NCBI GenBank assembly: GCA_934660865.1
Contig: CAKUIA010000006.1
Coordinates: forward strand, 78,418 to 110,417
Length of the DNA stretch: 32,000 bases
Direction of reading: 5' to 3'
Source: an uncultured Opitutales bacterium
Lineage (GTDB): Bacteria; Verrucomicrobiota; Verrucomicrobiia; Opitutales; Intestinicryptomonadaceae
In this document: in pieces, positions 1,541-19,818 of the stretch
Numbering within the stretch: position 1 is the first letter of the stretch
Layout: every line of letters starts with the position of its first letter
The notes under the pieces: model-generated
The model's database searches: none
The model's input: only the letters and a program-made list of their open reading frames with translations
Told to the model about the DNA's origin: nothing
Made by a program: the position numbers and the translations under genes

Positions 1541-3048
1541 TAAAAATTGAGCCTCTTTCGGCGGTAAACCCGTCGACCTACAACCCGCGAACCGCCGACC
1601 CGAAGCGGCTTGATTTGATTGAGCTTTCGCTTCGCAAATTGGGATTCATTGCGCCGATATATGCCGACGCAAACGGCGAAATTCTTTCGGGGCACCAACG
1701 CCATTTTGTGGCAACGCGAATGGGCGTAAAAAACGTTCCAGTTTTCAGGATTCCGCCGATGGAATTGGAGAAGCGCAAGGCGTTGAACATTGTCTTTAAC
1801 CGCGCCACTAACGACGGCGACATTTGCCAGACACCAGAAAAGGCTAAGCGCATTCTGGAAAGTCTAAATCTCTCGGAACTCGCCGAAAATATTCAAGACA
1901 AGGAGTTGGAGAGCAGAGACTTTTTCAGATGCGCCTACCCTGCGAAGGTGTCGGTTGCAAAACTTTGCAGGATAAATTCGGGACGATGGATTCAATACGC
2001 AAAGAGCATTGCCAGAACACTTCGCAAGGCTGGAATTGTTATGCCGATTGTCTGCACGCCAGACGGCAAAGTTATAAACGGAATCGGAAGACTCGAAATG
2101 CTTGCCGAACTCAAAGTAGATACTTGCGATGTGGTCTACATTTCCGAAGACGAGGCGAAATTTGCCGACGCTATGATGAACCTGCTTACGATGGAGTTCG
2201 ACATTCACACGCGCTACGCCGATTTGCTCCGCTATAATTCGTTCCGACGCGCCCGCAGAGTTCGCGAAGAATTGGGACACGGCTTTGTGTTCGCCGTTCA
2301 CGGGAATAAGCCCTGCCACAGTTTCGATATTTTCGATAAGTCGCAACAGGCGAAATGGCGCAAGGAGCACGGAAATTCAATTCTCGACTTCGGCGCGGGA
2401 CACCTTACGGAGACGAACATTTTGAAGTCTGCGGGCTTTGATTGTGTTCCGTTTGAGCCGTATCACATAAGCGTTTCCGAAATCGACAAGGAAAAGTCGC
2501 TTGAGATTTCGAGGGAATTTCTAAACGCCGTCGCAAATGGCAAGGAATTTACAAGCATATTCATTTCAAGCGTGTTAAACTCAGTTCCTTTCGCAAGGGA
2601 TAGAGAACACATAGTTTGCATTTGCGCCGCGTTGTGTCGTCCGTTTACAAAACTCTACGCCTGCGCTTCGTCGACGGCAGAAACCGGTTATAGGCAGGTA
2701 AACGGCAAGGCATTTCATAATGAATCGAATGCGGGCAATATAGCGTTTCGCCTTGAATACGAATCGGGAGTTCGCATTGGCGACTTTCAGGACAAGCCGA
2801 AAGTCCAGAAATACCACACAAAAAAGGAATTCTACGAACTCTTTTCGCCGTTTTTTAGAAACATTCAGATTTCGGAAATGACGGGCAACGTAAACGCCAA
2901 ATGCGAAAACGTCAGACGCATTCCGTGGGAACGCCTCGAAGAAGCGTTGAGATTTGAATTCAATCTGCCTTATCCCGACGGCTCTCGTATGGGATTGGTA
3001 GACGAGGCAATTTCGGCATTCAAACACCGCTATGAAATACTTGGTTGA
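1537..3048 (+). CDS. ParB-like domain(s) fused to a class I SAM-dependent methyltransferase (503 aa)
   Basis: N-terminus has NPRTADPKRLDLIELSLRKLGFIAPIY...SGHQRHFVA (ParB-like). A second degenerate ParB-like stretch lies near residue 170-200 (INGIGRLEMLAEL). C-terminal half has ILDFGAGHL (SAM motif I) and VPFEPY (acidic residue after beta-2). GGAGG lies upstream and the ATGA overlaps the previous gene. Confidence 0.8.
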   Translation: MIKIEPLSAVNPSTYNPRTADPKRLDLIELSLRKLGFIAPIYADANGEILSGHQRHFVATRMGVKNVPVFRIPPMELEKRKALNIVFNRATNDGDICQTPEKAKRILESLNLSELAENIQDKELESRDFFRCAYPAKVSVAKLCRINSGRWIQYAKSIARTLRKAGIVMPIVCTPDGKVINGIGRLEMLAELKVDTCDVVYISEDEAKFADAMMNLLTMEFDIHTRYADLLRYNSFRRARRVREELGHGFVFAVHGNKPCHSFDIFDKSQQAKWRKEHGNSILDFGAGHLTETNILKSAGFDCVPFEPYHISVSEIDKEKSLEISREFLNAVANGKEFTSIFISSVLNSVPFARDREHIVCICAALCRPFTKLYACASSTAETGYRQVNGKAFHNESNAGNIAFRLEYESGVRIGDFQDKPKVQKYHTKKEFYELFSPFFRNIQISEMTGNVNAKCENVRRIPWERLEEALRFEFNLPYPDGSRMGLVDEAISAFKHRYEILG

Positions 3049-3466
3049 TTTAAACTATACGCTTGTTGGAAATTCCCCGAGATGGGGAGAACCGCGCATT
3101 ACGCCGTTTTCAAGGCAGATTGAGCGGGAGACATACCGCCAGTGGCTTGTGGATTTCTTGCGGGATAAATACGCAATCCTCATTACTGCGCGACCTGCCA
3201 AATACAAAGAACAAACGCTTGCGAGGATTTTCTCTCAGACAAATTGGCACCCGCAGGAAACATATTTTGCGGAGATTTCCGCTACTCCACCCGAAATCAA
3301 AGAAGACCTATTGTTGCGGTATATCTTCCCGAAACACGGCAAAAATGGCGCGGATTTCTTCGGCATTGAAAGCAATCCGAAAACGCGGGCAATGTATGGA
3401 AAACATGATATAGAATCGCTATGTTTTGCCGATTTTAAGAAACAAACCGTTGACAAATTCGGATAA
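3032..3466 (+). CDS. HAD-like fold protein, paralog B (144 aa)
   Basis: Shares MKYL(L/V)DLN.TLV, RQIERETYRQWLV, ILITARP.KYK, TNW.P.E.YFAEI and FGIESNPKTR with 462..878. Includes an identical 20-nt run, gagacataccgccagtggct. Overlaps the end of 1537..3048 by 17 nt. Confidence 0.6.
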   Translation: MKYLVDLNYTLVGNSPRWGEPRITPFSRQIERETYRQWLVDFLRDKYAILITARPAKYKEQTLARIFSQTNWHPQETYFAEISATPPEIKEDLLLRYIFPKHGKNGADFFGIESNPKTRAMYGKHDIESLCFADFKKQTVDKFG

Positions 3467-3478
3467 AAGGAAGAGATT

Positions 3479-3649
3479 ATGGGCATGACAATGATAGCAA
3501 CACAGACAGAAGAAGAAATCCAACGTCAAGTGCGCGTTATCAGAGATGCCGCGCGGATTATTCGCCGTAGTCGGAGTAAGACCGACGCTTTTTTAAGGGC
3601 TATCGACCCAGATCTTGATAAACGTAAGAAGGCGAAGAAAAGTAAATAA
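3479..3649 (+). CDS. small basic hypothetical protein (56 aa), not in the ORF track
   Basis: Hand-translated: MGMTMIATQTEEEIQRQVRVIRDAARIIRRSRSKTDAFLRAIDPDLDKRKKAKKSK. AAGGAAG Shine-Dalgarno lies 8 nt upstream. The stop abuts the ATG of the next gene (TAAATG). Confidence 0.4.
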   Translation: MGMTMIATQTEEEIQRQVRVIRDAARIIRRSRSKTDAFLRAIDPDLDKRKKAKKSK

Positions 3650-4297
3650 ATGAATTCTTCGCTCATACTTACTGGCTATCACGGTTGCGATATAACTACG
3701 GCATATGACGTTGTTCTGGACGGACGTTTGAATCCGAGTCGAAACACATACGACTGGCTTGGGAATGGCGTTTATTTTTGGGAAGACGATATTGAAAGAG
3801 CCTATGACTGGGCAAAATACGTTTCGGCGAATCCCAAACTTTTTCACAACAAAATAGAACATCCTTGTGTTGTCGGCGCGGTAATCGAGTTGAAAAACCA
3901 TCTTGATTTGACTATTTCAAGCGCAAGGCAGGTCGTAAGAGAAGCATACAACAACATTTCGGAAATCTACGCCGAAAAGGGTTTGGAATTGCCCAAAAAT
4001 CGCAAATCGTCAAAAGGCGATGACTATTTGAAGATTCGCGAACTCGACTGCTTGGTTATAAATTCGATAAACGAGTTTAGAAAAGCCAAGAAAGAACCGC
4101 TTATTGATGTCGTTCGAGCTCCGTTTTTGGAGGGTGAACCTCTATACGCAGGGGCTTCTTTTATGAACGAGACTCATATCCAAATTTGCGTAAAAGATCT
4201 CTCCGCAATTAGGGGATATTTTATTCCGCCGCAATTCAAGAGTATGTTTAAGAACGCAAAAATTCCGAATTGGGATAAGGTTCTCGGGGAATATTAA
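3650..4297 (+). CDS. DUF3990-like protein (215 aa)
   Basis: GYHGC...LGNGVYFWEDDIERAYDWA and the later THIQICV resemble, from memory, the DUF3990 pattern (YHGS...FGxGFYxT...A..WA...THQI). Confidence 0.55.
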   Translation: MNSSLILTGYHGCDITTAYDVVLDGRLNPSRNTYDWLGNGVYFWEDDIERAYDWAKYVSANPKLFHNKIEHPCVVGAVIELKNHLDLTISSARQVVREAYNNISEIYAEKGLELPKNRKSSKGDDYLKIRELDCLVINSINEFRKAKKEPLIDVVRAPFLEGEPLYAGASFMNETHIQICVKDLSAIRGYFIPPQFKSMFKNAKIPNWDKVLGEY

Positions 4298-4323
4298 ATT
4301 TTGACATTCCGCCGTCTTGTATG
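4298..4323 (+). promoter_or_regulatory. ATTTTGACA-N14-ATG motif copy (b)
   Basis: TTGACA at 4301-4306, spacer ttccgccgtcttgt, ATG at 4321. The spacer is nearly identical to copy (a). Follows the TAA at 4295-4297. Confidence 0.6.
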
Positions 4324-5016
4324 GAATTGCATACGGACGACAGGATTATTTCGCGACAGAGCAACTGGGTGTTCGACGAACACGTCGCGCCCGAATTCGA
4401 CAAGCACGTCAGAAAGAGCGTGCCCAATTACGTTCACGTTCAGGATTTGGCGGAGACATTTTCCGACTGGTTCACATACCCCAATTCGACTGTAATCGAC
4501 TTCGGGGCTTCCACAGGCGAAACCCTGCGCAGGATAAAACGCCGCCATTCGAAAACGATCCACCTCATAGGCTACGACAATTCGCAGGCGATGATAAATC
4601 AGGCGAAAACAAAAGGCGTAGACATCATTTTTGCCGACCTCGAAAAGCCGTTTGTTCTGCCCAATTTTTCCTACGCAGTTTCGCTTTACACATTGCAATT
4701 CCTGCGCCCAGACGCGCGGAACGCGCTGTTAAAGCGCATATTCCACAGCCTTGAAAATTGCGGCGGAATGTTTGTCGTCGAAAAAGTTCTCGGCTCAACA
4801 TCGCAAATGCAGGACATTTTGCAACAGCTCTATTGGGAAATGAAGGCAAAGAACGGCTTTTCGTCAGAACAAATCATCAACAAGGCGAAAGCCCTGCGCG
4901 GGTGTATGTATCCCAAAACCGTAGCCGACAACGAAGCGGAATTCCGCGCAATCGGGTTCAATTCGGAAATAGTTTTCAAAGAATCGCAGTTCTGCGGTTG
5001 GCTGCTTACGAAATGA
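4321..5016 (+). CDS. CmoA-like SAM-dependent methyltransferase / carboxy-SAM synthase family (231 aa)
   Basis: NWVFDEHVAPEFDKHVRKSVPNY, VIDFGASTG, YTLQFLRPDARNALLKRIFHSLENCGGMFVVEK and the C-terminal FCGWLLTK parallel E. coli CmoA ([59 protein letters not shown]), recalled from memory. Confidence 0.7.
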   Translation: MELHTDDRIISRQSNWVFDEHVAPEFDKHVRKSVPNYVHVQDLAETFSDWFTYPNSTVIDFGASTGETLRRIKRRHSKTIHLIGYDNSQAMINQAKTKGVDIIFADLEKPFVLPNFSYAVSLYTLQFLRPDARNALLKRIFHSLENCGGMFVVEKVLGSTSQMQDILQQLYWEMKAKNGFSSEQIINKAKALRGCMYPKTVADNEAEFRAIGFNSEIVFKESQFCGWLLTK

Positions 5017-6794
5017 AGCTTCTTCGGGATATTCTCAAAGACGCTTGGACGCCCGCCGACCGCCGAGAGCCTTGGCGTTGGTGCGAAGACCATATAAAAA
5101 GCATTCCGTATTCGCCGCTTCCAGGACCGTTCAGAAGCGAAAACTCGCCGTGGATTCGCGAAGTTATGGAGGCAATCGTTGACCCGAAAATCCGCCTTGT
5201 CTCGATTATCGCCGCCGTCCAAAGCTCGAAGACTACAAGTCCCGAGCTTACGCTTTGCTACATAATAGCCAACCTCCCAGGACCTTGCCTTTGGCTCGAC
5301 CAGACGGACGAAGACGCAAAAGACGAGTCGGAAAGCCGCCTGCAAAAGCTTTTTGAGAGCTGCGAGCCGGTAAAAAAGCTATTTCCAAAGAACAAAAATA
5401 AACAGCGCAACTGCACAATCCACTTTTCAAACGGAATGACGCTTTGGCTGCTGGGAGCGTATAACAAGACCAATCTCCAACGCCGTTCAATCCGCTGGCT
5501 TTTCGGAGACGAAACTTGGCGATGGCCAGTCGGACATATGGCGGAAGCGGAGGCAAGAACTACGGCTTTCGGGTGGCTCGGCAAATGCGTGTTTATGAGT
5601 CAAGGCGGAGAGGAGAACGACGACACCCACCGCAAATTTGAAACAACCGATATGCGCGAATGGCACTACAAGTGTCCCAAATGCGGCAAATACATTCCCT
5701 ACAAGTGGGAAAACATCGAGTGGGACGACGACTGCAAAGACGAAAACGGCGAATACGACTTTTCAAAAATCAACCATTCAACAGCCTTGAAATGTCCCGA
5801 ATGCGGGGAGTATTTTGAGGATTCCGACAGAATGAGGCGCATTCTCAACAAGGACGGAAAGTTTATCGCGCTCAATCCGAATGCTTCAAAAGAAAACGTG
5901 GGCTTCCATTGGAATGCGCTCGCTTCGATGAGTTGGGGCAAGCTTGCCGAGCTTTACCTTCGCGCGAAAATTGCCGCAAGAAAGGGCGACAGCTCTTTGC
6001 TGCAACAATTCTACCAGAAACGCCTTGCTCTTGCTTGGAGGGAATTTGCCGAAGACTACCGCCTTGAAATCGCCTCTGGCAGCTATAATTCGGGGGACGT
6101 TTGGGATGAGGAAGCGGGCTTCAACAAGCTCGGTGAAATCATCGCCCCGCCTTTTGCCGAAAACGAGGTTATCGCGCCGCTTCGCATAATGTCGGTTGAT
6201 GTTCAGATGAACTGCTTTTACTTGGTTGTCCGCGCTTGGAGCATTAACGGTTCGAGTCGTCTTCTATGGCACGAAAAGGTACTGACGTGGGAAGACATCG
6301 AGGAAATCCAAAAGCGTTTTAAAATTTTGGACAACCTTGTATTTGTCGACGCGGGGTATAATTCGTTTGAAGTCTACAAGCATTGCGGGGAGCGGAATTG
6401 GATTGCGCTTATGGGCGACAACAGGGCGAACTTCTTTCACAGACTTCCGAACGGCAAGACGGTTTTGCGCTTTTACTCTCCCGTAAAGCACATATTTATT
6501 TCGCGCTACGTTAAGTGCCGTATGCACTTTTGGAGCAACCTCAACGTAAAAGACACTTTGGCGAGAATCAGGCGAAACCAGAATCCTGCCGACGGCGCAA
6601 CTTGGGAAGTGCCGACGGATATTTCCGAAGACTACTTAAAGCAAATGGAGTCCGAACACCGCATTAAAAAGGGCAACTCGTGGATATGGGAGCAAATCGG
6701 CAACCGCCCCAACCACTACCTCGACTGCGAAGCTATGAACTGCGCAGGAGCGTTGATGTTGAAGATTGTGGGGAACAATGGTTTATATAGTTAA
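5013..6794 (+). CDS. terminase large subunit, GpA (lambda-like) family
   Basis: Walker-A-like AAVQSSKTT and paired zinc-ribbon motifs CPKCGK...CPECGE, as in GpA-family terminases. Size about 593 aa. Position immediately upstream of gpW-like and portal genes. Start taken at ATG 5013, which overlaps the stop of 4321..5016. Confidence 0.85.
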   Translation: MKLLRDILKDAWTPADRREPWRWCEDHIKSIPYSPLPGPFRSENSPWIREVMEAIVDPKIRLVSIIAAVQSSKTTSPELTLCYIIANLPGPCLWLDQTDEDAKDESESRLQKLFESCEPVKKLFPKNKNKQRNCTIHFSNGMTLWLLGAYNKTNLQRRSIRWLFGDETWRWPVGHMAEAEARTTAFGWLGKCVFMSQGGEENDDTHRKFETTDMREWHYKCPKCGKYIPYKWENIEWDDDCKDENGEYDFSKINHSTALKCPECGEYFEDSDRMRRILNKDGKFIALNPNASKENVGFHWNALASMSWGKLAELYLRAKIAARKGDSSLLQQFYQKRLALAWREFAEDYRLEIASGSYNSGDVWDEEAGFNKLGEIIAPPFAENEVIAPLRIMSVDVQMNCFYLVVRAWSINGSSRLLWHEKVLTWEDIEEIQKRFKILDNLVFVDAGYNSFEVYKHCGERNWIALMGDNRANFFHRLPNGKTVLRFYSPVKHIFISRYVKCRMHFWSNLNVKDTLARIRRNQNPADGATWEVPTDISEDYLKQMESEHRIKKGNSWIWEQIGNRPNHYLDCEAMNCAGALMLKIVGNNGLYS

Positions 6795-8020
6795 ATAATT
6801 TCTCCTCGAAAATAATCTTTTATTATTTTTATATATTTATTTGGGATTCCTAGCCTTTCTCTAAACAAATTTTTCACAGGTACAGGATTTGGATTTAATA
6901 TGATTATATTTGGATATTTAGTCTTTTTGCAAAAAGCCTTTTTTAATAAATCAATTGCTCTTATATCAGTGATGGGGAAAGAGTATCCAATTACATATAT
7001 TGATTCTGCTTTACTTAAATCAGATTCAGCATATTCCCATAAATTTTTAAATAATTTGCCCCAAAAATTATAACTTTTATTTTTGACTGGAGGGATAATC
7101 AGTGGAGTACTTGGCATTCCATCACTAGGATAATTACTTTCAGGAATCCAAGGAAATTTCGGTCTTACCCTGATAATAAGCCGATCTTTAGGTGCTGTTT
7201 TTCCTTTGTCTGATAAAATATTTGGGGGATAATATCCCATAGAAAAAGGAGCATATCCTTCCATATATCTACCCGCGTACGCAGGATAAGGTTTAGTTGC
7301 GTATTCATATATCCAAACTGAATCATTTGGAGATTCTTGTATTAGTTTAAAATCTTTTGCTTCTTGATCATAGTACATAGGAGAAGTGAGCCAATTTGTT
7401 GAGCCATGTAACTTTATTAATTTTGGGGATTGTTTGAAGCTGTTTTGAGGCAACAGCCATTTATCTCGATATATACCACAAGGCGAAAAACCATATCCAA
7501 AGTCTGTTTCCCAATCAGTATCTTCTTGTAAGGCTCGATCCAATAAAGTATCCCAATTAAATGTTATTATAGTATCATCTGTATTTATTTTTTTTAAAAA
7601 TAATCTATGTGCTTTTGATGTTGGTCCATTTTGAATTTCATTTATAATCGATGAAAAAAAATAAACCAATTGTTGATAAGTTTTTGTCAATATAAGCAAC
7701 TCGCTGGAAATATGTTCGCAATTTTGATCCTTTTCAATTAAGGTAAGCATTTTATATTCAATCGCAGAGTGAATTTTCTCAATATCTAAATCTCCTTTAA
7801 AAACTGATTCGATAGGAACATTTCTGGTCTTATGTAAATAATTCACGATGTCACCGATTATAACCCAAGGGTTTTGTGATATATTTAATTTTTCAAAGGT
7901 AGAAAAAACCTCTGTTGCCAATGGCATTTTTTGACCAGATAAGGATTCACCATAAGACTTAGATGCTCCAGCTCCCAATATATATACATTCATTTCATTA
8001 TTTAAGTTCAATGGATACAT
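6791..8020 (-). CDS. SIR2-like (SIR2_2 type) domain protein, stand-alone
   Basis: YILGAGASKSYG (N-terminal glycine motif), IITFNWDTLLD (TTNYD-like, Asn retained), LIKLHGSTNW (catalytic His) and YVIGYSFPITD. AT-rich, on the opposite strand to the phage genes. Start at ATG 8020 or 7993; the track's 8068 start would run through the gpW promoter motif. Confidence 0.8.
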   Translation of the reverse strand: MYPLNLNNEMNVYILGAGASKSYGESLSGQKMPLATEVFSTFEKLNISQNPWVIIGDIVNYLHKTRNVPIESVFKGDLDIEKIHSAIEYKMLTLIEKDQNCEHISSELLILTKTYQQLVYFFSSIINEIQNGPTSKAHRLFLKKINTDDTIITFNWDTLLDRALQEDTDWETDFGYGFSPCGIYRDKWLLPQNSFKQSPKLIKLHGSTNWLTSPMYYDQEAKDFKLIQESPNDSVWIYEYATKPYPAYAGRYMEGYAPFSMGYYPPNILSDKGKTAPKDRLIIRVRPKFPWIPESNYPSDGMPSTPLIIPPVKNKSYNFWGKLFKNLWEYAESDLSKAESIYVIGYSFPITDIRAIDLLKKAFCKKTKYPNIIILNPNPVPVKNLFRERLGIPNKYIKIIKDYFRGEII

Positions 8021-8033
8021 GTAAATTACTCGA

Positions 8034-8063
8034 ATTTTTTTGACAAGTTTTATTCTTATCATG
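8034..8063 (+). promoter_or_regulatory. ATTTTTTTGACA-N15-ATG motif copy (g)
   Basis: TTGACA at 8040-8045, 15-nt spacer with no Shine-Dalgarno, ATG at 8061. Confidence 0.55.
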
Positions 8064-8318
8064 TCCAATTACATTTACACACGCGGGTATACTGTGGCGG
8101 AGCTTGAGGCTTTGCTTGTTCGGGTAAAAGCCGAGCGCGAAAAGTATCTTCAATCGGCTTCCGATAGCGGAAGCTCGTATTCACGCATCGCGCTTTCGGA
8201 AATCGAGAAGAAGTTCAACGGCATAATGGACGCGTTGGAGCTTCTCGCGCCCGAAAAATACCCCAAAACAAACCGCCGAATTTCCCTTAGCGGCGTAGTA
8301 GGAGGAGTTATCCAATGA
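8061..8318 (+). CDS. gpW-like head-tail joining protein (85 aa)
   Basis: Small protein between the GpA terminase and a lambda-family portal, the position of lambda W. Helical AELEALLVRVKAEREKYL ... SEIEKKFNGIMDALELL pattern. ATGA overlap with the portal gene. Confidence 0.5.
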   Translation: MSNYIYTRGYTVAELEALLVRVKAEREKYLQSASDSGSSYSRIALSEIEKKFNGIMDALELLAPEKYPKTNRRISLSGVVGGVIQ

Positions 8319-12444: not shown

Positions 12445-12903
12445 CTATGATACTCGAAAGTTTTTCGCAGAAGTTGGTGTAATCTGAAATATAATCCCAT
12501 CGTGCCTAATCAAATACAGCACATTTAGGGAGTCATTTGTTATTAGAATATCGTCCGATGATGGATACCAAATATACTTAAAATAGTCGCAGAAATCCGC
12601 ATAATTAAAAATATCCATAGGGCATTCATAACCCCATATAACGATTATATTATCGGATTGGTCAGATAGTAGATTCAAAGACTTGATAGAAAAGTCTTCT
12701 GATGTTGCGTCCGTATTTTCAATATATTTTCCAGCTTCCTGAACTTTGTTAAAATCAGATATATCTAAATTATAACGCAACGACAGTTTTCTTGTAATCG
12801 ATTCGCTTTCCTTTTTTGATAATGTATTGAATGAAGGAAATTTCGATTGTGTTTCATTTTCAAATATTGAAATTTTGAATGAGTCCACTCTTCTTATCCC
12901 CAA
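12445..12903 (-). CDS. hypothetical protein (about 147-152 aa), third gene of the Phd/PIN operon
   Basis: AT-rich ORF starting 12 nt after the PIN stop. It has no in-frame ATG near its 5' end, so it must use TTG 12903 or GTG 12888. No motif recognised. Confidence 0.5.
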   Translation of the reverse strand: MGIRRVDSFKISIFENETQSKFPSFNTLSKKESESITRKLSLRYNLDISDFNKVQEAGKYIENTDATSEDFSIKSLNLLSDQSDNIIVIWGYECPMDIFNYADFCDYFKYIWYPSSDDILITNDSLNVLYLIRHDGIIFQITPTSAKNFRVS

Positions 12904-12915
12904 TTTCGTTTGCCT

Positions 12916-13317
12916 TTACAAAAACTCCAACGCTTCGGCGGGAGAAAGAACCGTTATGCCGAGCTTTTTCATAAGCGGTTTGGGATAGTGTTTTGCATTT
13001 CCCGTAACGATTATTTTATCCTGCGTTGCAAGTGCCGCTTCTATGAAAATTTTGTCGTCAATATCGGGAAGTTCTTCGGAAATATGCACGGGTTCTATCG
13101 GGTCAGTTCCCATTAAATCCACAAGAAATATGTTTACGCATTCCTCGGTGAGGTGAAATCGCGGGCGGGACAAAACTTCGAGATATTCGCAGATTATTCG
13201 GTTGTCGTAAACCGCTGTAAAATTTTCGCCCATTTTCGACATCAGCAAATGCGGCGAACCGTTTGTGCTCAAAAACGCCGAAACAACGACATTTGTATCA
13301 ATTACAAAAGTCTTCAT
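12916..13317 (-). CDS. PIN-domain toxin (VapC-like)
   Basis: Starts MKTFVIDTNVVVSAF (first acidic PIN residue). Later acidic residues in PDIDDKIFIEAA, and TGNAKHY. 133 aa. Overlaps the upstream antitoxin by 4 nt. Confidence 0.8.
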   Translation of the reverse strand: MKTFVIDTNVVVSAFLSTNGSPHLLMSKMGENFTAVYDNRIICEYLEVLSRPRFHLTEECVNIFLVDLMGTDPIEPVHISEELPDIDDKIFIEAALATQDKIIVTGNAKHYPKPLMKKLGITVLSPAEALEFL

Positions 13318-13616
13318 TTTCTGTTCTTGCGTTCTTTTCTCGCTGCGGCGATTTCGGCGTCAATTTCCTCCATCGTCATATTGGAAGTTCCGTTCTTTAC
13401 CGCGCGCATTTGGCTACGCAAGAGCATTTGCTTGAATTTCATATGAACGACAGCGCGGATATCGGGCAACAGAGTATCCTCCGTTGTCGATATTAGAATG
13501 GAACGCGGCTTGCCGTCCTTTGTGATGACTACGAACCCGCTTTTGTCGACTTCCTTCATAACCTTGCCCGAATTTGTGGCAAGTTCTCTTGTGGCTACCA
13601 TTTTCATACGTTTCAT
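13314..13616 (-). CDS. Phd/YefM-like antitoxin
   Basis: VATRELATNSGKVMKEVDKSGFVVITKDGKPRSILIS matches the Phd/YefM N-terminal pattern. 100 aa with a basic C-terminus. Immediately precedes the PIN gene. Confidence 0.7.
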   Translation of the reverse strand: MKRMKMVATRELATNSGKVMKEVDKSGFVVITKDGKPRSILISTTEDTLLPDIRAVVHMKFKQMLLRSQMRAVKNGTSNMTMEEIDAEIAAARKERKNRK

Positions 13617-14030: not shown

Positions 14031-14767
14031 GCGTGAATTTTGAAATCATTACAAAAGACTTTGAAAACACACTTGCAAAATACAAAGTCGCCTGCCGCAA
14101 GGATTGGCAATTTGTAATTCGGCAACAGTCGCGCATTGTCGGCGAAAAACTTGTGAAATTTACCCCGCCCAAAACAGCGTCAATAGGCAAGCGCAATGTT
14201 GCGCGGGACATCGGCAAAGTGTTTGCAGACCTAAGCAATACAAAATGGAACGACAAGTCTTTGGATAAAATGTGGCGCGCGGGCAACTTTGAGGGCGTAA
14301 AAAAGGCTCTCGAAAACCACCCGAATAGGCTTCAAATGCCCGTCTTTAAATACAAACGCATTTTCGCAAAGCCAGTCCGCAATATCCACAAGGCGGCAAT
14401 CAATAGAAGCGGAAGAGTCCCGAAAAATTGGCGGACTTCCTACGCCGTAGCTGGCAAAGGCGAACTTAAAAAATACGTCAAAAAGGTTCAACTGCAAGTG
14501 GGCGTTGCAAAGTCGGGCTGGCTTGCGGCACTTGTGAAGTTGGGAGGCAAAGCCCCGAATTTCGTTTCGCGCCACGGCACAAAATACGGCGGATTTGTCG
14601 ACGGCAACAAGGGAGACAATCCATTCTTTACCCTAATCAACAAGGTTTCGACATTCCCGCAGGGAGGCACTCCCGCAAGAATTTTACGCCGCGCATTCAT
14701 CGCACAAACAAAGGCTATGGGAAAAAATATCAAACGTCTGATGGATAAATCTGGAAGGATTTTCTAA
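14027..14767 (+). CDS. hypothetical virion morphogenesis protein (246 aa)
   Basis: Basic protein, translationally coupled on both sides. No secure motif. Confidence 0.5.
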   Translation: MSVNFEIITKDFENTLAKYKVACRKDWQFVIRQQSRIVGEKLVKFTPPKTASIGKRNVARDIGKVFADLSNTKWNDKSLDKMWRAGNFEGVKKALENHPNRLQMPVFKYKRIFAKPVRNIHKAAINRSGRVPKNWRTSYAVAGKGELKKYVKKVQLQVGVAKSGWLAALVKLGGKAPNFVSRHGTKYGGFVDGNKGDNPFFTLINKVSTFPQGGTPARILRRAFIAQTKAMGKNIKRLMDKSGRIF

Positions 14768-15165
14768 TGCGCGAAAAACTCGAAAACATACTCTATTCGA
14801 AGTTAAAAGCTTCGCTTCCTGCGGAATTTAAAACAATGCTTGTTCGCGGACATTCCACGAACGACAGGCACATTCCGTATATAAGCCTCGATGTCGGCGA
14901 ACTCCGCCCGTTCGGCGATTTGCAATCCACCGACGGAATGTTTGAAGCCGATGTAAGCGTCGCAATAGCCGATTCCGCCCACGACATTGAATACCCCGAA
15001 CTCTTCAAGCGCATTCGCGCGGTAATGTCGGCTTTCGAGAATTTTTCCTACGCGGAAGACAATATCCTAATAAACGCCATCTACTACGAAAACGAAACAG
15101 ACGCCAGAGACGACAACAATATGGGAATAATTTTGGCATATCGGGTAATTCTTCAATCCCTATGA
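14767..15165 (+). CDS. hypothetical neck/tail-completion protein (132 aa)
   Basis: TAATG coupling. Size and position are typical of tail-completion proteins. Assignment is by synteny only. Confidence 0.45.
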   Translation: MREKLENILYSKLKASLPAEFKTMLVRGHSTNDRHIPYISLDVGELRPFGDLQSTDGMFEADVSVAIADSAHDIEYPELFKRIRAVMSAFENFSYAEDNILINAIYYENETDARDDNNMGIILAYRVILQSL

Positions 15166-15192
15166 AAAAAATCAGCTCGACAAATTAAACAT

Positions 15193-15218
15193 ATTTGACA
15201 TCATACATGACTATAATG
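15193..15218 (+). promoter_or_regulatory. ATTTGACA-N15-ATG motif copy (h)
   Basis: TTGACA at 15195-15200, 15-nt spacer, ATG at 15216. An in-frame ATG also exists at 15207. Confidence 0.45.
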
Positions 15219-16118
15219 AAAAGGAAGTATAAAGTCGTATTAGGTCTTTTAGCGGCCTTTGGAGGGAAATTGTCCCGAAAGTACATGCAAAAGCTTGTAT
15301 TCTTGTTTTGCGAACGTAATGATTCTTCGTTGTTTACGTTCATTCCTTTTCGCTATGGGTGTTTTTCCGAAGAATTAGCAACCCTCCAAGAAAGTTTTAT
15401 TCAGGACGGATACTTGAAGAAAAACGAATTGTGGGAACTGTCAGACAAGGGAAGAAAACAAACCGTCGATATAGATCTGTTTGATTCGGAAGCCATAGAA
15501 AAATTAACTCGTCGTTTTGGAACACTTACAGAATCTGAAATCATAAAATATGTATACCAAACTCATCCGTATTATGCTATAAATAGCGTAATTTTGGATA
15601 AGATATTATCTCCAGAAGAGCAGAAACCGATACTACAGTTAAAGCGAAAATTAAAAAACGAAATAGACAACAAAAAAATTGTAAGTATCGGATATGAAGG
15701 ATACACAATAGACGATTATATAAAAATGCTTTTGGATAATCGAGTAAAAGTTTTATGTGATGTTAGAAAAAATCCAATAAGCCGCAAAAAAGGATTTTCG
15801 AAATCTGCTCTGTCATTTGCCTTGGAAAAATTGCACATAACTTACTATCATTTTCCCGAATTAGGAATTCCGTCAAACATGCGACAGAAGTTGGTTTCTC
15901 AGGAAGATTACGATAATCTTTTCTGTTTCTATGAAAAAAATATTTTATCTAAAAATTTTTCATACATAGAAGAAATTTCCTCTTTTCTTGACAAATTTGG
16001 AACGGTTGCGCTGTTATGCTTTGAAAAAAATCCTAATCAATGCCATAGGACGCGTATCGTTAATAGAATTCTTGAATACAGAGAAAACGATGTAAAGGCG
16101 ATTACGTCATGTCAGTAA
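15216..16118 (+). CDS. winged-helix-like N-terminal domain fused to a DUF488 domain
   Basis: C-terminal half has IVSIGYEGYTIDDYIKML..VKVLCDVRKNPISRKKGFSK..L...L....ITYYHFPELG ... ALLCFEKNPNQCHRTRI, which is the DUF488 pattern as I recall it. The N-terminus ends in DGYLKKNELWELSDKGRK, which is wing-like. AT-rich. Confidence 0.7.
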   Translation: MKRKYKVVLGLLAAFGGKLSRKYMQKLVFLFCERNDSSLFTFIPFRYGCFSEELATLQESFIQDGYLKKNELWELSDKGRKQTVDIDLFDSEAIEKLTRRFGTLTESEIIKYVYQTHPYYAINSVILDKILSPEEQKPILQLKRKLKNEIDNKKIVSIGYEGYTIDDYIKMLLDNRVKVLCDVRKNPISRKKGFSKSALSFALEKLHITYYHFPELGIPSNMRQKLVSQEDYDNLFCFYEKNILSKNFSYIEEISSFLDKFGTVALLCFEKNPNQCHRTRIVNRILEYRENDVKAITSCQ

Positions 16119-16939
16119 GTAAGAAAAGGATTTTTATAACGGTTAAAACTTACCCAAATCCATCAGCCTCATATGTTGAGACTGTTTGTACCGCAGGGAT
16201 TATTGAAAATGAAGGGTGGATTAGATTATATCCAATACCTTTTAGGGTATCGGACGAATACAAACAATTTAAAAAATACCAGTGGATTACTGTCGATGTT
16301 GTAAAAAGACCAGCTTCTTCCTCAGATAGACGTCCTGAAAGTTTCTCTCCGCAAGCAGGAACAATGAAATTGGGAAATATAATACCGAGCTCCTCAGATG
16401 CACGAAAAGATATTATATTCAAAAACACGAGAACTTATAATGATTTTGAAGAAATCTTCAAATTGGCAAGAGAATTTAAGATTTCATTAGCGACATTTAA
16501 GGCAACGCAAATACTTGATTTCTATGTAGAGCCAGTAAAAGAAAGAGATTGGACTCCCGAAGAACAGTCAAAATTGCGCAGAGAATTTTGCCAAGAAGAT
16601 TTATTTTCCGATTCACATCTTAGGGCTTCAAATTTACGAAAACTTCCATACAAGTTTAAATTTAAATTAGAAGATATAAAAGGGAAAATATCAAATATGA
16701 TGATAGAAGATTGGGAAGTCGGTGCGTTGTATTGGAATGTCTATAATTCAACAAAATCAGAGGAACAAGCGGTTAAGGCGGTAATTGATAAATATACATC
16801 TATATATAAGGAACAAGATTGTACTTTCTTTTTAGGCACTGTGAATAAAAACCAAAATATCAAAGCTCCAAATCCTTTTGTGATAATTGGACTTTTTCAC
16901 ACGCAAAAAACATTACAAACAGTTTTTAGTTTCGAATAG
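16109..16939 (+). CDS. hypothetical protein (276 aa), partner of the DUF488 gene
   Basis: Overlaps the upstream gene by 10 nt. N-terminus is ITVKTYPNPSASYVETVCTAGIIENEGWIRLYPIPFR. I cannot assign a named family. Confidence 0.6.
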   Translation: MSVSKKRIFITVKTYPNPSASYVETVCTAGIIENEGWIRLYPIPFRVSDEYKQFKKYQWITVDVVKRPASSSDRRPESFSPQAGTMKLGNIIPSSSDARKDIIFKNTRTYNDFEEIFKLAREFKISLATFKATQILDFYVEPVKERDWTPEEQSKLRREFCQEDLFSDSHLRASNLRKLPYKFKFKLEDIKGKISNMMIEDWEVGALYWNVYNSTKSEEQAVKAVIDKYTSIYKEQDCTFFLGTVNKNQNIKAPNPFVIIGLFHTQKTLQTVFSFE

Positions 16940-16966
16940 ATTTTTGACATTGTTCCCTTTTGTATG
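16940..16966 (+). promoter_or_regulatory. ATTTTTGACA-N14-ATG motif copy (d)
   Basis: TTGACA at 16944-16949, spacer ttgttcccttttgt, ATG at 16964. Follows the TAG at 16937-16939. Confidence 0.6.
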
Positions 16967-17326
16967 AGCAATCCATACAAACTAAGAGGGACAAAACAGC
17001 CTATTTCGTTCGGCGTTGAAAAGCTTGACGGCTATATTGTCGACGCAACCGAAGAGACTATCGAGGGCGAAGAGCTTGAAGTTGAAGACGAAAACAACAA
17101 CGTAGTTGCGCATTTTTCGGGCTTCGGTATTCGACACAAACGCACGGCAAGCGTGATTCCGCTTGTAGGAGCAACCGCGCCGCTTCCAGGAGATTCGTTT
17201 AAAATCGGCGAGAACTTCGAGTTCATCGTAAAGTCTGTTAAAAAATCCCGCGCCCGCAAGGACGTTGAAAAATGGGATTTGGAGGGCACATACTACCCCG
17301 AAGTTCCGATGGAGGTAATCGGGTAA
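16964..17326 (+). CDS. putative tail tube or other tail structural protein (120 aa)
   Basis: First gene of a unit ending in the tape measure gene. Assignment by position only. Confidence 0.4.
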   Translation: MSNPYKLRGTKQPISFGVEKLDGYIVDATEETIEGEELEVEDENNNVVAHFSGFGIRHKRTASVIPLVGATAPLPGDSFKIGENFEFIVKSVKKSRARKDVEKWDLEGTYYPEVPMEVIG

Positions 17327-17856
17327 TGGAAGACTTCTACGAAGCCTTTATAAATTGCTCGCACACGGCTTTGGGCAAACGCCTGAAGCCTTTTTGCTTG
17401 AAGCATTGTTTGTATTTGGAGGCGGTAAATTCGCCGATAATGCGCCTTGTAAACGGCGAGGAAGCGGAAATTTCCCGCCAAGATTTAGAGGTAGCCGTTA
17501 TTATTTGCTCGGCGGACGATATTCTAAAAAGCCTGAAACGCCCGTATCTTGGAATGAAATTCCATTCATACAGACGCGGATTAACGGCGTTTCTTTCGTA
17601 TCTGACGGACTTTGTTGCCGTCCCCGAACTCTGGGATAAAATCGATTCGGAAACCACGCTCAACGCACCTTGGATACTCTCGCGGGCTATGTTGCTTCTT
17701 TCAAAAACTTCGCTGAGGCTTGACGAGGTTTGGAATATGCCGCTTGGCGAGCTTCTCTGGTATTGCGCCGTGTTTGCCGAACAGGAGGGCGTGGCTCAAA
17801 TTCAGTCGGACACAGAAAAGCGCATAATCGAGGAAATTAAAAATGGCAACAAGTAG
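17326..17856 (+). CDS. hypothetical protein, tail-assembly-chaperone position (176 aa)
   Basis: TAATG coupling. Immediately precedes and overlaps the tape measure gene. No slippery heptamer found. Confidence 0.4.
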   Translation: MEDFYEAFINCSHTALGKRLKPFCLKHCLYLEAVNSPIMRLVNGEEAEISRQDLEVAVIICSADDILKSLKRPYLGMKFHSYRRGLTAFLSYLTDFVAVPELWDKIDSETTLNAPWILSRAMLLLSKTSLRLDEVWNMPLGELLWYCAVFAEQEGVAQIQSDTEKRIIEEIKNGNK

Positions 17857-19341: not shown

Positions 19342-19818
19342 TTACATAATCATCATACTGTATATAAACATCAGCCAAGCAAGAGGTAGAAAGAGAATGG
19401 AGATAAATAGCCATACACGTTTAAGCTTAGGCGATGTCTTTGAAAACCTCTCGAAGTACTTAAGGTATTTATCTTTTCTCCATAAGAGCAAATGATTTAT
19501 TAAGTAACAAGGAATTCCCGTAATTAAGCAAAAAGTCCACTTGTCTAAAGGCACTAAGGAAACGCGAGGGTATAAGATAGATGCAAAATTGAACAATGTC
19601 CATACCAACAGAGCGGTAAAAGCCAACATCATTACGTCAGAAATCGTTGTTTGCAGTAGCCAAAACTGCAATAGAGGCATTCTTATATAACGTTTGGCAT
19701 TTGGGACGAAACAAGACACCAAAGCTTCTGCAAACCTGTTTATTGCGAGTTGGGTTATTTTGTTCCACTCGTAAACACAAAAATACAACCAGTTCCAAAA
19801 CAATTCAATATGCTTCAT
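19342..19818 (-). CDS. multi-pass membrane protein (158 aa), AT-rich moron
   Basis: Several hydrophobic spans (VMMLAFTALLVWTLFNFASILY, FCLITGIPCYLINHLLLW, VWLFISILFLPLAWLMFIYSMMIM). Opposite strand, between the tape measure and distal tail genes. Confidence 0.65.
   Translation of the reverse strand: MKHIELFWNWLYFCVYEWNKITQLAINRFAEALVSCFVPNAKRYIRMPLLQFWLLQTTISDVMMLAFTALLVWTLFNFASILYPRVSLVPLDKWTFCLITGIPCYLINHLLLWRKDKYLKYFERFSKTSPKLKRVWLFISILFLPLAWLMFIYSMMIM

Follow-up and report, generated by a model that had tools for sequence, protein, structure and literature searches.

A PDC-M19 gene pair carried as cargo in the virion module of a temperate phage, and a tentative DarTG-like reading of its two proteins

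In this work we analysed a stretch of 32,000 nucleotides (the window; positions 78,418 to 110,417 of contig CAKUIA010000006.1) from an uncultured Opitutales bacterium, in which two overlapping genes, gene 1 and gene 2, encoding proteins A and B, lie among the virion genes of a temperate phage. Our analysis leads us to describe this cassette as horizontally acquired cargo (a moron) in a hotspot of the virion module, carrying the candidate defence system PDC-M19. Gene 1 matches the PADLOC profile PDC-M19A (PDLC04505) with an E-value of 5.4e-89 (residues 9-301 on positions 2-290 of 294) and gene 2 matches PDC-M19B (PDLC04508) with an E-value of 2e-84 (residues 4-271 on positions 2-266 of 269), and the two genes lie side by side in the same orientation, which is the PDC-M19 arrangement. 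Both proteins also belong to PHROG families of unknown function. An earlier note on this DNA had presented the pair as an undescribed two-component system, a claim that does not survive its identification as PDC-M19 A/B and the existence of PHROG families for both proteins; the novelty is reduced further by the DUF488-N3a and DuOB models of Pfam, to which the proteins are related at or below threshold. The accompanying idea of a DNA-sensing effector pair fares better, in that a nucleic-acid-directed, defence-type role is plausible. The pair is PDC-M19 by membership; what is new is its setting in a cargo slot of a phage virion module and the reading of its domains.

PDC-M19 is one of 145 candidates described by their authors as untested, which were derived from genes found inside BREX, DISARM and type I restriction-modification (RM) systems, such embedded candidates often being solo (Payne et al., 2024, bioRxiv 10.1101/2024.01.29.577857). 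In Pfam, gene 1 matches DUF488 (PF04343) over residues 172-290 (E-value 8e-25; 88.3 bits for a gathering cut-off of 22.2) and reaches 17.3 bits with DUF488-N3a (PF22751), under the gathering cut-off of 27 bits. Weak DUF488-N3a matches are present in all 44 gene-1 homologues, and in some of them the score passes the cut-off (29.5-34.6 bits). Gene 2 has no match in Pfam or NCBIfam, and no hit to DuOB (PF22557) even at an E-value of 10; NCBIfam gave no match for gene 1 either. DuOB is nevertheless the only family that members of the gene-2 family match repeatedly (17 of 51, all sub-threshold, best E-value 4.5e-5). Searching both protein sequences against Protein Data Bank (PDB) chains gave nothing meaningful, and the literature retrieved with 'DUF488' contained nothing on function or defence, while 'DuOB' and 'dual OB' returned irrelevant results only.

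The cassette differs sharply in composition from the DNA around it. Gene 1 (15195..16118, + strand) encodes 307 amino acids (aa) counted from TTG; this start is to be corrected, the TTG at 15195 being the first three bases of the TTGACA motif itself. In public gene calls the gene starts at the ATG at 15207, and the corresponding 303-aa protein (P0121) is found, 100% identical, on 13 contigs. Gene 2 (16109..16939, + strand) starts with ATG, encodes 276 aa and overlaps gene 1 by 10 nucleotides (nt). The GC content of the cassette is 0.33 and its GC at third codon positions (GC3) 0.26-0.32, compared with 0.47-0.51 and 0.53-0.64 in the flanking genes; its codon frequencies correlate with those of the phage core at 0.43, compared with 0.79 between the two halves of the core. 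The overlap, the GC lower than that of the neighbours, the peptide motifs quoted from the two proteins and the copy of TTGACA on each side of the cassette, at 15195 and 16944, had all been noticed beforehand, and all were reproduced.

The window encodes a gpA terminase, a lambda-family portal, an S49 protease and a collagen-repeat fibre, which identify it as phage DNA. The nearest cultured relatives of the portal, Verrucomicrobia and Akkermansia phages, are only about 26% identical, and a megablast search with 17 kb around the locus gave no match among 50,697 phage records. The entire virion block is common to contigs with an identical or an 80%-identical gene 1. Three IMG/VR records of relatives without the cassette (L093, L094 and L095) were located through a 246-aa neighbour protein. 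They share all the flanking genes and lack the cassette at this position: in L094 and L095 the slot is empty, with about 106 bp between the 132-aa gene on its left (14767..15165, + strand) and the 120-aa gene on its right (16964..17326, + strand), and in L093 it holds an unrelated 188-aa multi-pass membrane protein gene on the opposite strand. Alignment to the empty slots stops at the stop codon of the 132-aa gene and picks up again at a TTTGACA that precedes the ATG of the 120-aa gene by about 20 nt. Accordingly, the region upstream of the cassette (15166..15206, + strand) is common to the cassette-bearing relative L088 and missing from the empty-slot relatives, and the right junction (16940..16963, + strand), conserved in L088 and in L093-L095, empty slots included, is phage backbone and not cassette. 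Synteny places both flanking genes in the phage backbone; tblastn over L081-L095 finds the 132-aa gene in all relatives, with the cassette present or absent. The two flanking proteins have no family match in Pfam or PHROG, and the labels 'neck/tail-completion' and 'first tail gene' given to them earlier are unconfirmed. We looked around the cassette for the marks of a transposon or an integration site, in the form of direct or inverted flanking repeats or of RNA genes, and found chance matches only; no terminator is predicted on either side. The proposal of a self-contained accessory cassette inserted in a virion module is upheld by the slots that are empty or hold another gene. The base composition marks the cassette as foreign, and related phages can do without it.

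The pairing of the two genes extends far beyond this phage. In a genomic survey, in which one genome per species was scanned, 583 gene-2 relatives were found and 80 loci from many phyla were retained; in each of the 80, the gene immediately 5' of the gene-2 relative and in the same orientation is a full-length gene-1 homologue, with junctions mostly of -4 to +7 nt. IMG/VR contained 43 loci with a gene-2 relative, in 42 of which the gene-2 homologue was detected by profile, and a DUF488 gene adjoins it in 41 of these 42. Co-occurrence beyond this locus, without which the earlier note would have abandoned its proposal, is thus general in both sets. Most of the viral loci have the fused N-terminal domain and DUF488 upstream of gene 2, about eight have a short DUF488 gene without the N-terminal domain, one has the DUF488 gene downstream, and one is convergent. 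The gene-2 family comprises 3,220 cluster representatives at E <= 1e-3; the best 150 of these are nearly all of about 250-330 aa (the shortest being 211 aa), and there is no A-B fusion protein among them. These surveys show an obligate pairing of A with B, with translational coupling, in many phyla. The pair is mostly found in bacterial chromosomes, with no phage genes next to it, and the 119 nearest open reading frames (ORFs) of 30 genomic loci include type I and type IIG RM components, Fic/SoFic and Band_7 proteins.

Cultured phages also carry the pair. Seven Gordonia phages encode a gene-2 homologue (27.7% identity, 99% coverage). In one of them, Nymphadora (NC_031061.1; L096 in our set), this homologue is gp43 and is convergent with gp42 (locus 6819-7271), which is annotated as a 'HipA toxin' and is a 150-aa DUF488 protein that reaches the DUF488-N3a cut-off (E-value 1e-29). 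The same misannotation is probably shared by Eviarto, BatStarr, TimTam and Herod, judging from the same gp43 match at matching positions. The Nymphadora group sits between the integrase gene and cro, and upstream of it gp44 encodes an HTH_31 'immunity repressor'. We considered gp44 as an equivalent of gene 1 and rejected it, as it is an HTH_31 protein without BLASTP similarity to gene 1 and the real DUF488 partner is gp42. The CarolAnn paper contains no defence data on the Nymphadora pair, these phages having served there as targets. In Rhodococcus and Mycolicibacterium the pair is likewise convergent, with a 4-nt overlap, and lies near AbiE genes, IS481 and TniQ; the actinobacterial and Gordonia-phage loci form a branch in which the two genes, still paired, converge and overlap by 4 nt. 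Because layouts vary in this way in viral and actinobacterial loci, the constant core is the DUF488 protein with the dual oligonucleotide-binding (OB) fold protein, and the N-terminal domain of protein A is optional.

Protein A is composed of two domains. In its AlphaFold2 model (mean predicted local distance difference test score, pLDDT, 93; predicted template-modelling score, pTM, 0.83), residues 1-155 form a helical, winged-helix-like domain (15207..15671, + strand), which we delimit from the model, from Foldseek and from weak SocA_Panacea matches in homologues; K29, F32, F45, P47, G51, S54, Y117, P121 and S127 are invariant in it. The best PDB match of the whole model in Foldseek is 7yk3_B/D, the DarG chain of the Mycobacterium tuberculosis DarTG complex (E-value 5e-4, probability 1.00), with a template-modelling (TM) score of 0.48-0.54 when normalised to the target. 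SocA_Panacea (PF13274) is matched by 17 of the 44 gene-1 homologues, below the cut-off of 25.7 bits (best E-value 3.9e-4), and in the homologue P0216 the match covers residues 57-120, within the N-terminal domain. The second domain (about residues 157-300; 15672..16118 with the stop codon, + strand) is defined by Pfam DUF488 and PADLOC PDC-M19A. The description of gene 1 as a winged-helix-like N-terminus joined to DUF488 therefore stands for its second half, while the first half is better called a partner-binding domain resembling Panacea and the DarG C-terminal domain. Our conclusion is that protein A is a Panacea/DarG-C-terminal-like domain fused to DUF488.

Across the 44 homologues (alignment A2), the invariant residues of the DUF488 domain are G162, Y163, D185, R187, S192, K194, G196, F197, K199, H215, C271, E273 and C279-H280-R281. 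All the conserved residues are kept in protein A, which suggests, from the sequence, an intact and putatively active enzyme. The loop C271-R281 joins a strand to a helix in the model, and we infer by analogy that it may be placed like the catalytic loop of cysteine phosphatases. The domain has weak fold matches to PRL-1, DUSP15, Siw14, an archaeal protein tyrosine phosphatase, RapZ and tetrapyrrole methylases. These matches agree with the placement of DUF488 in the rhodanese-phosphatase superfamily, reportedly made by Burroughs and Aravind in 2023.

Protein B (16109..16939, + strand), assigned to PDC-M19B by PADLOC, is described as tandem OB-like from the fold matches of its AlphaFold2 model (pLDDT 83, pTM 0.82). 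Foldseek against the PDB returned only OB-fold nucleic-acid binders (Teb1 AB, RPA/RPA70, RecO, RADX, SSB and the anticodon domains of tRNA synthetases), none of them at E <= 1e-3 and all with low TM-scores. Among viral models the top match, nearly full length, is the single-stranded DNA (ssDNA)-binding protein LEF-3 of baculoviruses (E-value 1e-4, probability 1.00). The N-terminal barrel is basic (isoelectric point 9.7). The model thus suggests a tandem-OB protein resembling ssDNA binders and distantly related, below threshold, to DuOB. Between two branches that are about 27% identical, 27 positions are invariant (alignments A1 and A6), including E24, C27, R39, R46, K56, D73, R75, E77, R99, S126, D201-W-E203 and D237; several of the invariant residues fall in low-confidence loops of the model. 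This polar core exceeds what a passive binder needs and hints at catalysis or at a tight interface. In actinobacterial gene-2 homologues a C-x4-C-x-G-H motif stands just before the invariant DWE, at a place where the branch of the window has no cysteines (alignment A6); the motif may be a lineage-specific metal site.

The reading that we put forward, tentatively and at a little under an even chance, is that the pair works as a conflict module along DarTG-like lines and is directed at single-stranded nucleic acid; A would restrain B, and infection would upset the balance. Protein B would be the harmful effector, binding single-stranded nucleic acid or DNA ends and acting by blocking or chemically altering the nucleic acid that it has bound. 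The Panacea-like domain of A would bind B directly, and the DUF488 domain, presumed to be phosphatase-like and of the rhodanese-phosphatase superfamily, would undo or process a phosphate-linked group on the same substrate. An invading phage would upset the A-B balance and free B, which would then halt replication of the invader or of the infected cell and so protect the lysogen population. In variants that lack the Panacea-like domain the enzymatic arm alone would operate. Panacea domains neutralise many unrelated toxins through direct binding, and DarG both binds DarT and enzymatically reverses its DNA modification (Kurata et al., 2022, PMC8832971). The context of the pair is in agreement with a defence role, as some loci adjoin type I or IIG RM, Fic or AbiE genes, other slots of this phage lineage hold toxin-antitoxin and Abi cargo, and the Nymphadora pair lies in the integrase-cro interval, beside the repressor. 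A more specific proposal, which we regard as unlikely, is that protein B is a new kind of effector against single-stranded nucleic acid, either an enzyme built on an OB scaffold with E24, C27, D73, E77, D201, E203 and D237 as its core or a replication-blocking binder, and that DUF488 reverses or processes a phosphate-linked lesion as the macrodomain does in DarTG. If this were true, the DUF488 family would gain its first defined biochemical role, and the pair would represent a new dual-mode (type II plus type IV) class of toxin-antitoxin defence.

Several observations weigh against the DarTG-like reading. The TM-scores of the DarG match are modest (0.32-0.54), and the match of family profile positions 20-59 to residues 31-70 of 7yk3_B is weak (E-value 1.6). 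Protein A of the window itself has no SocA_Panacea hit, and no Pfam match in its N-terminal region. No catalytic fold can be recognised in protein B, and binding is usually all that OB folds do. Direct neutralisation cannot be the core of the system, because the Panacea-like domain is missing in the roughly eight viral variants with a short DUF488 and in the whole actinobacterial branch. Most of the neighbours in the scan of genomic loci are ordinary housekeeping genes, in keeping with the remark of Payne et al. on solo candidates. Finally, 'PDC-M19' is named in no searchable paper, the PDCs have the standing of candidates, and a complex between A and B, a toxic B and the proposed substrate of DUF488 are all putative.

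The optional nature of the N-terminal domain would be accommodated by a different division of labour, which we consider possible and rather doubtful, namely a sensor-effector complex in which B is harmless, recognises ssDNA or phage DNA termini and recruits DUF488 as the true effector, the N-terminal domain of A being a mere adaptor. DUF488 might, for example, take away terminal phosphates or transfer them, which would keep the phage genome from being ligated, circularised or packaged. In this scheme the constant DUF488 and dual-OB core, the place of DUF488 as the sole recognisable enzyme of the pair and the resemblance of B to the ssDNA binders RPA70, RecO and LEF-3 are all expected. In addition, the 2023 abstract of Burroughs and Aravind reportedly predicts DNA-end processing in conflict systems for a RapZ-C-DUF488-DUF4326 clade. 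However, stand-alone DUF488 proteins are common outside such pairs, as is more to be expected of an enzyme of repair or reversal than of a harmful effector; the invariant polar core of B is larger than a passive binder needs, and the N-terminal domain of A resembles a domain that neutralises toxins.

A pure addiction module, stabilising a prophage or a genomic island without any anti-phage role, is improbable in our estimation. It would explain the antitoxin-like domain in A, the order antitoxin then toxin and the translational coupling, the PIN/Phd and ParE/antitoxin pairs in neighbouring slots of the same lineage, and the retention of the cassette at 100% protein identity in the apparently decayed prophage L082. 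However, many toxin-antitoxin modules, DarTG included, defend against phages, so that the two roles are not exclusive; moreover, the family is found embedded in RM, BREX and DISARM systems and the cassette is also present in apparently complete phages. We give an equally low rank to a function serving the phage itself, in counter-defence or replication, by protecting or repairing its own ssDNA or ends or by reversing a DNA modification made by a host defence. The cassette is on the same strand as the late operon and has no predicted terminator on either side, which makes co-transcription during lytic growth possible, LEF-3-like and SSB-like folds serve viral replication, and DarG-like enzymes could in principle undo DNA modification. 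Such a function is difficult to reconcile with the predominance of chromosomal occurrences without phage neighbours, with the actinobacterial pairs near AbiE genes, insertion sequence (IS) elements and Tn7-like genes, and with the position of the Nymphadora pair in the lysogeny region and not in a replication module. That the pair might be an ordinary virion or assembly component conserved in related phages is suggested by its position inside the head-tail gene block, on the same strand, and is hardly credible, since the pair is missing from close relatives with the same flanking genes, has a foreign base composition and occurs at many non-phage chromosomal loci; synteny with L093-L095 refutes it. 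The DarTG-like module remains the reading that we favour.

The TTGACA copies that flank the cassette are part of a longer motif, TTTGACA, and have separate origins. The left copy (15194-15200) is part of what moves as the cassette, and L088, whose cassette is 80% identical, has it too. The right copy (16943-16949), 21 nt 5' of the ATG of the 120-aa gene, is kept even in relatives with an empty slot and hence belongs to the phage backbone. TTTGACA occurs 10 times in the window for 5.8 expected, a count that is not significant by itself (7 of 100 shuffles reach 10); nine of the 10 occurrences are on the + strand, and three lie exactly 21 nt 5' of an ATG (4300->4321, 16943->16964 and 23636->23657). 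Further copies are found at 15194, 10529 and 880. At 21 nt the motif is too close to the ATG to be a classical -35 box; a promoter or translation signal specific to the phage or to the host is a possibility. The region upstream of the cassette also contains a putative sigma-70-like match, TCGACA-16 nt-CATCAT (15177-15204).

Other parts of the virion block vary among relatives. A second low-GC cargo slot in the head-tail region (12445-13616, - strand) encodes a 152-aa protein, a PIN_3 toxin (E-value 2e-15) and a Phd-like antitoxin (E-value 3e-4); in relatives it holds a 277-aa gene, an NYN nuclease, or Abi_2 with a RecQ-like helicase. A third slot (19342-19818, - strand) follows the 492-aa tape-measure-like gene and encodes a 158-aa hydrophobic protein (GC 0.37), replaced in relatives by a Hypoth_Ymh protein or by a ParE toxin with its antitoxin. 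A 425-aa gene of opposite orientation separates terminase from portal (6791-8068, - strand) and has a weak SIR2_2 match (E-value 1e-3); at the same position relatives have a 252-aa gene or an AAA_14/DUF4143 ATPase, and because its contents differ among relatives this site is a fourth hotspot. To the right of the cassette, the 120-aa ORF overlaps the next ORF in a different frame (16964-17856 for the two); the latter has 194 aa from its first start and 176 aa in relatives, and both are directly 5' of the 492-aa Ala/Gly-rich gene. By this layout, without a family match, the 120-aa and 194-aa genes resemble the tail-assembly chaperones of siphoviruses, and the 492-aa gene after them a tape measure. 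In L082 (ENA ERZ27229769, k119_79575, 2439-5237) the cassette is present with 100% protein identity, but the tail genes after it are cut short and give way directly to TetR and RND-efflux genes of bacterial type; this looks like a decaying prophage that retains the cassette, or an assembly chimera.

DUF488, of which we take E. coli YeaO to be a member, is a large family without settled biochemistry, and PDC-M19 is a defence candidate. At this locus the pair is mobile cargo, in a hotspot where other cargo is found too, and in this lineage at least four separate slots within one virion gene block can be filled with defence or toxin-antitoxin genes. The domain reading gives a testable hypothesis, in which a DarG-like binding domain is joined to a phosphatase-like enzyme and the partner resembles an ssDNA binder. 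A direct experimental route is offered by cultured, genetically tractable Gordonia phages (Nymphadora, BatStarr and others), which carry the pair beside an immunity repressor.

The comparison with known systems sets the limits of the DarTG analogy. As in DarTG, one polypeptide joins an enzymatic domain with a domain that resembles, at the level of the fold only, the toxin-binding C-terminal domain of DarG, and it is encoded beside a protein that putatively targets single-stranded nucleic acid. In contrast with DarTG, gene 1 has no macrodomain match and carries DUF488 in its place, and the partner has a predicted tandem-OB fold and not the ART fold of an ADP-ribosyltransferase; the gene order is also reversed relative to darT-darG. 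The pair is not a member of the DarTG family. It shares with PanA-PanT pairs an N-terminal domain with sub-threshold SocA_Panacea matches (in the 17 homologues mentioned above) and a place beside an unrelated partner in a compact operon of two genes; pairs of this sort are found in phages and prophages. It differs from them in that the protein of the window is under the Pfam cut-off, the domain is fused to an enzyme and the toxicity of the partner is putative. A further comparison is with the pairing of DUF488-N3a and DuOB. In Actinobacteria, the relatives of gene 2 give sub-threshold DuOB matches and have true DUF488-N3a proteins as their partners, and the fold matches of gene 2 suggest that it may be two-OB-like; the proteins of the window are under both cut-offs and add the Panacea-like domain and a co-directional, overlapping layout. 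With PDC-M19 the pair is the same at the family level: both proteins are full-length matches, adjacent and on the same strand, and nothing differs.

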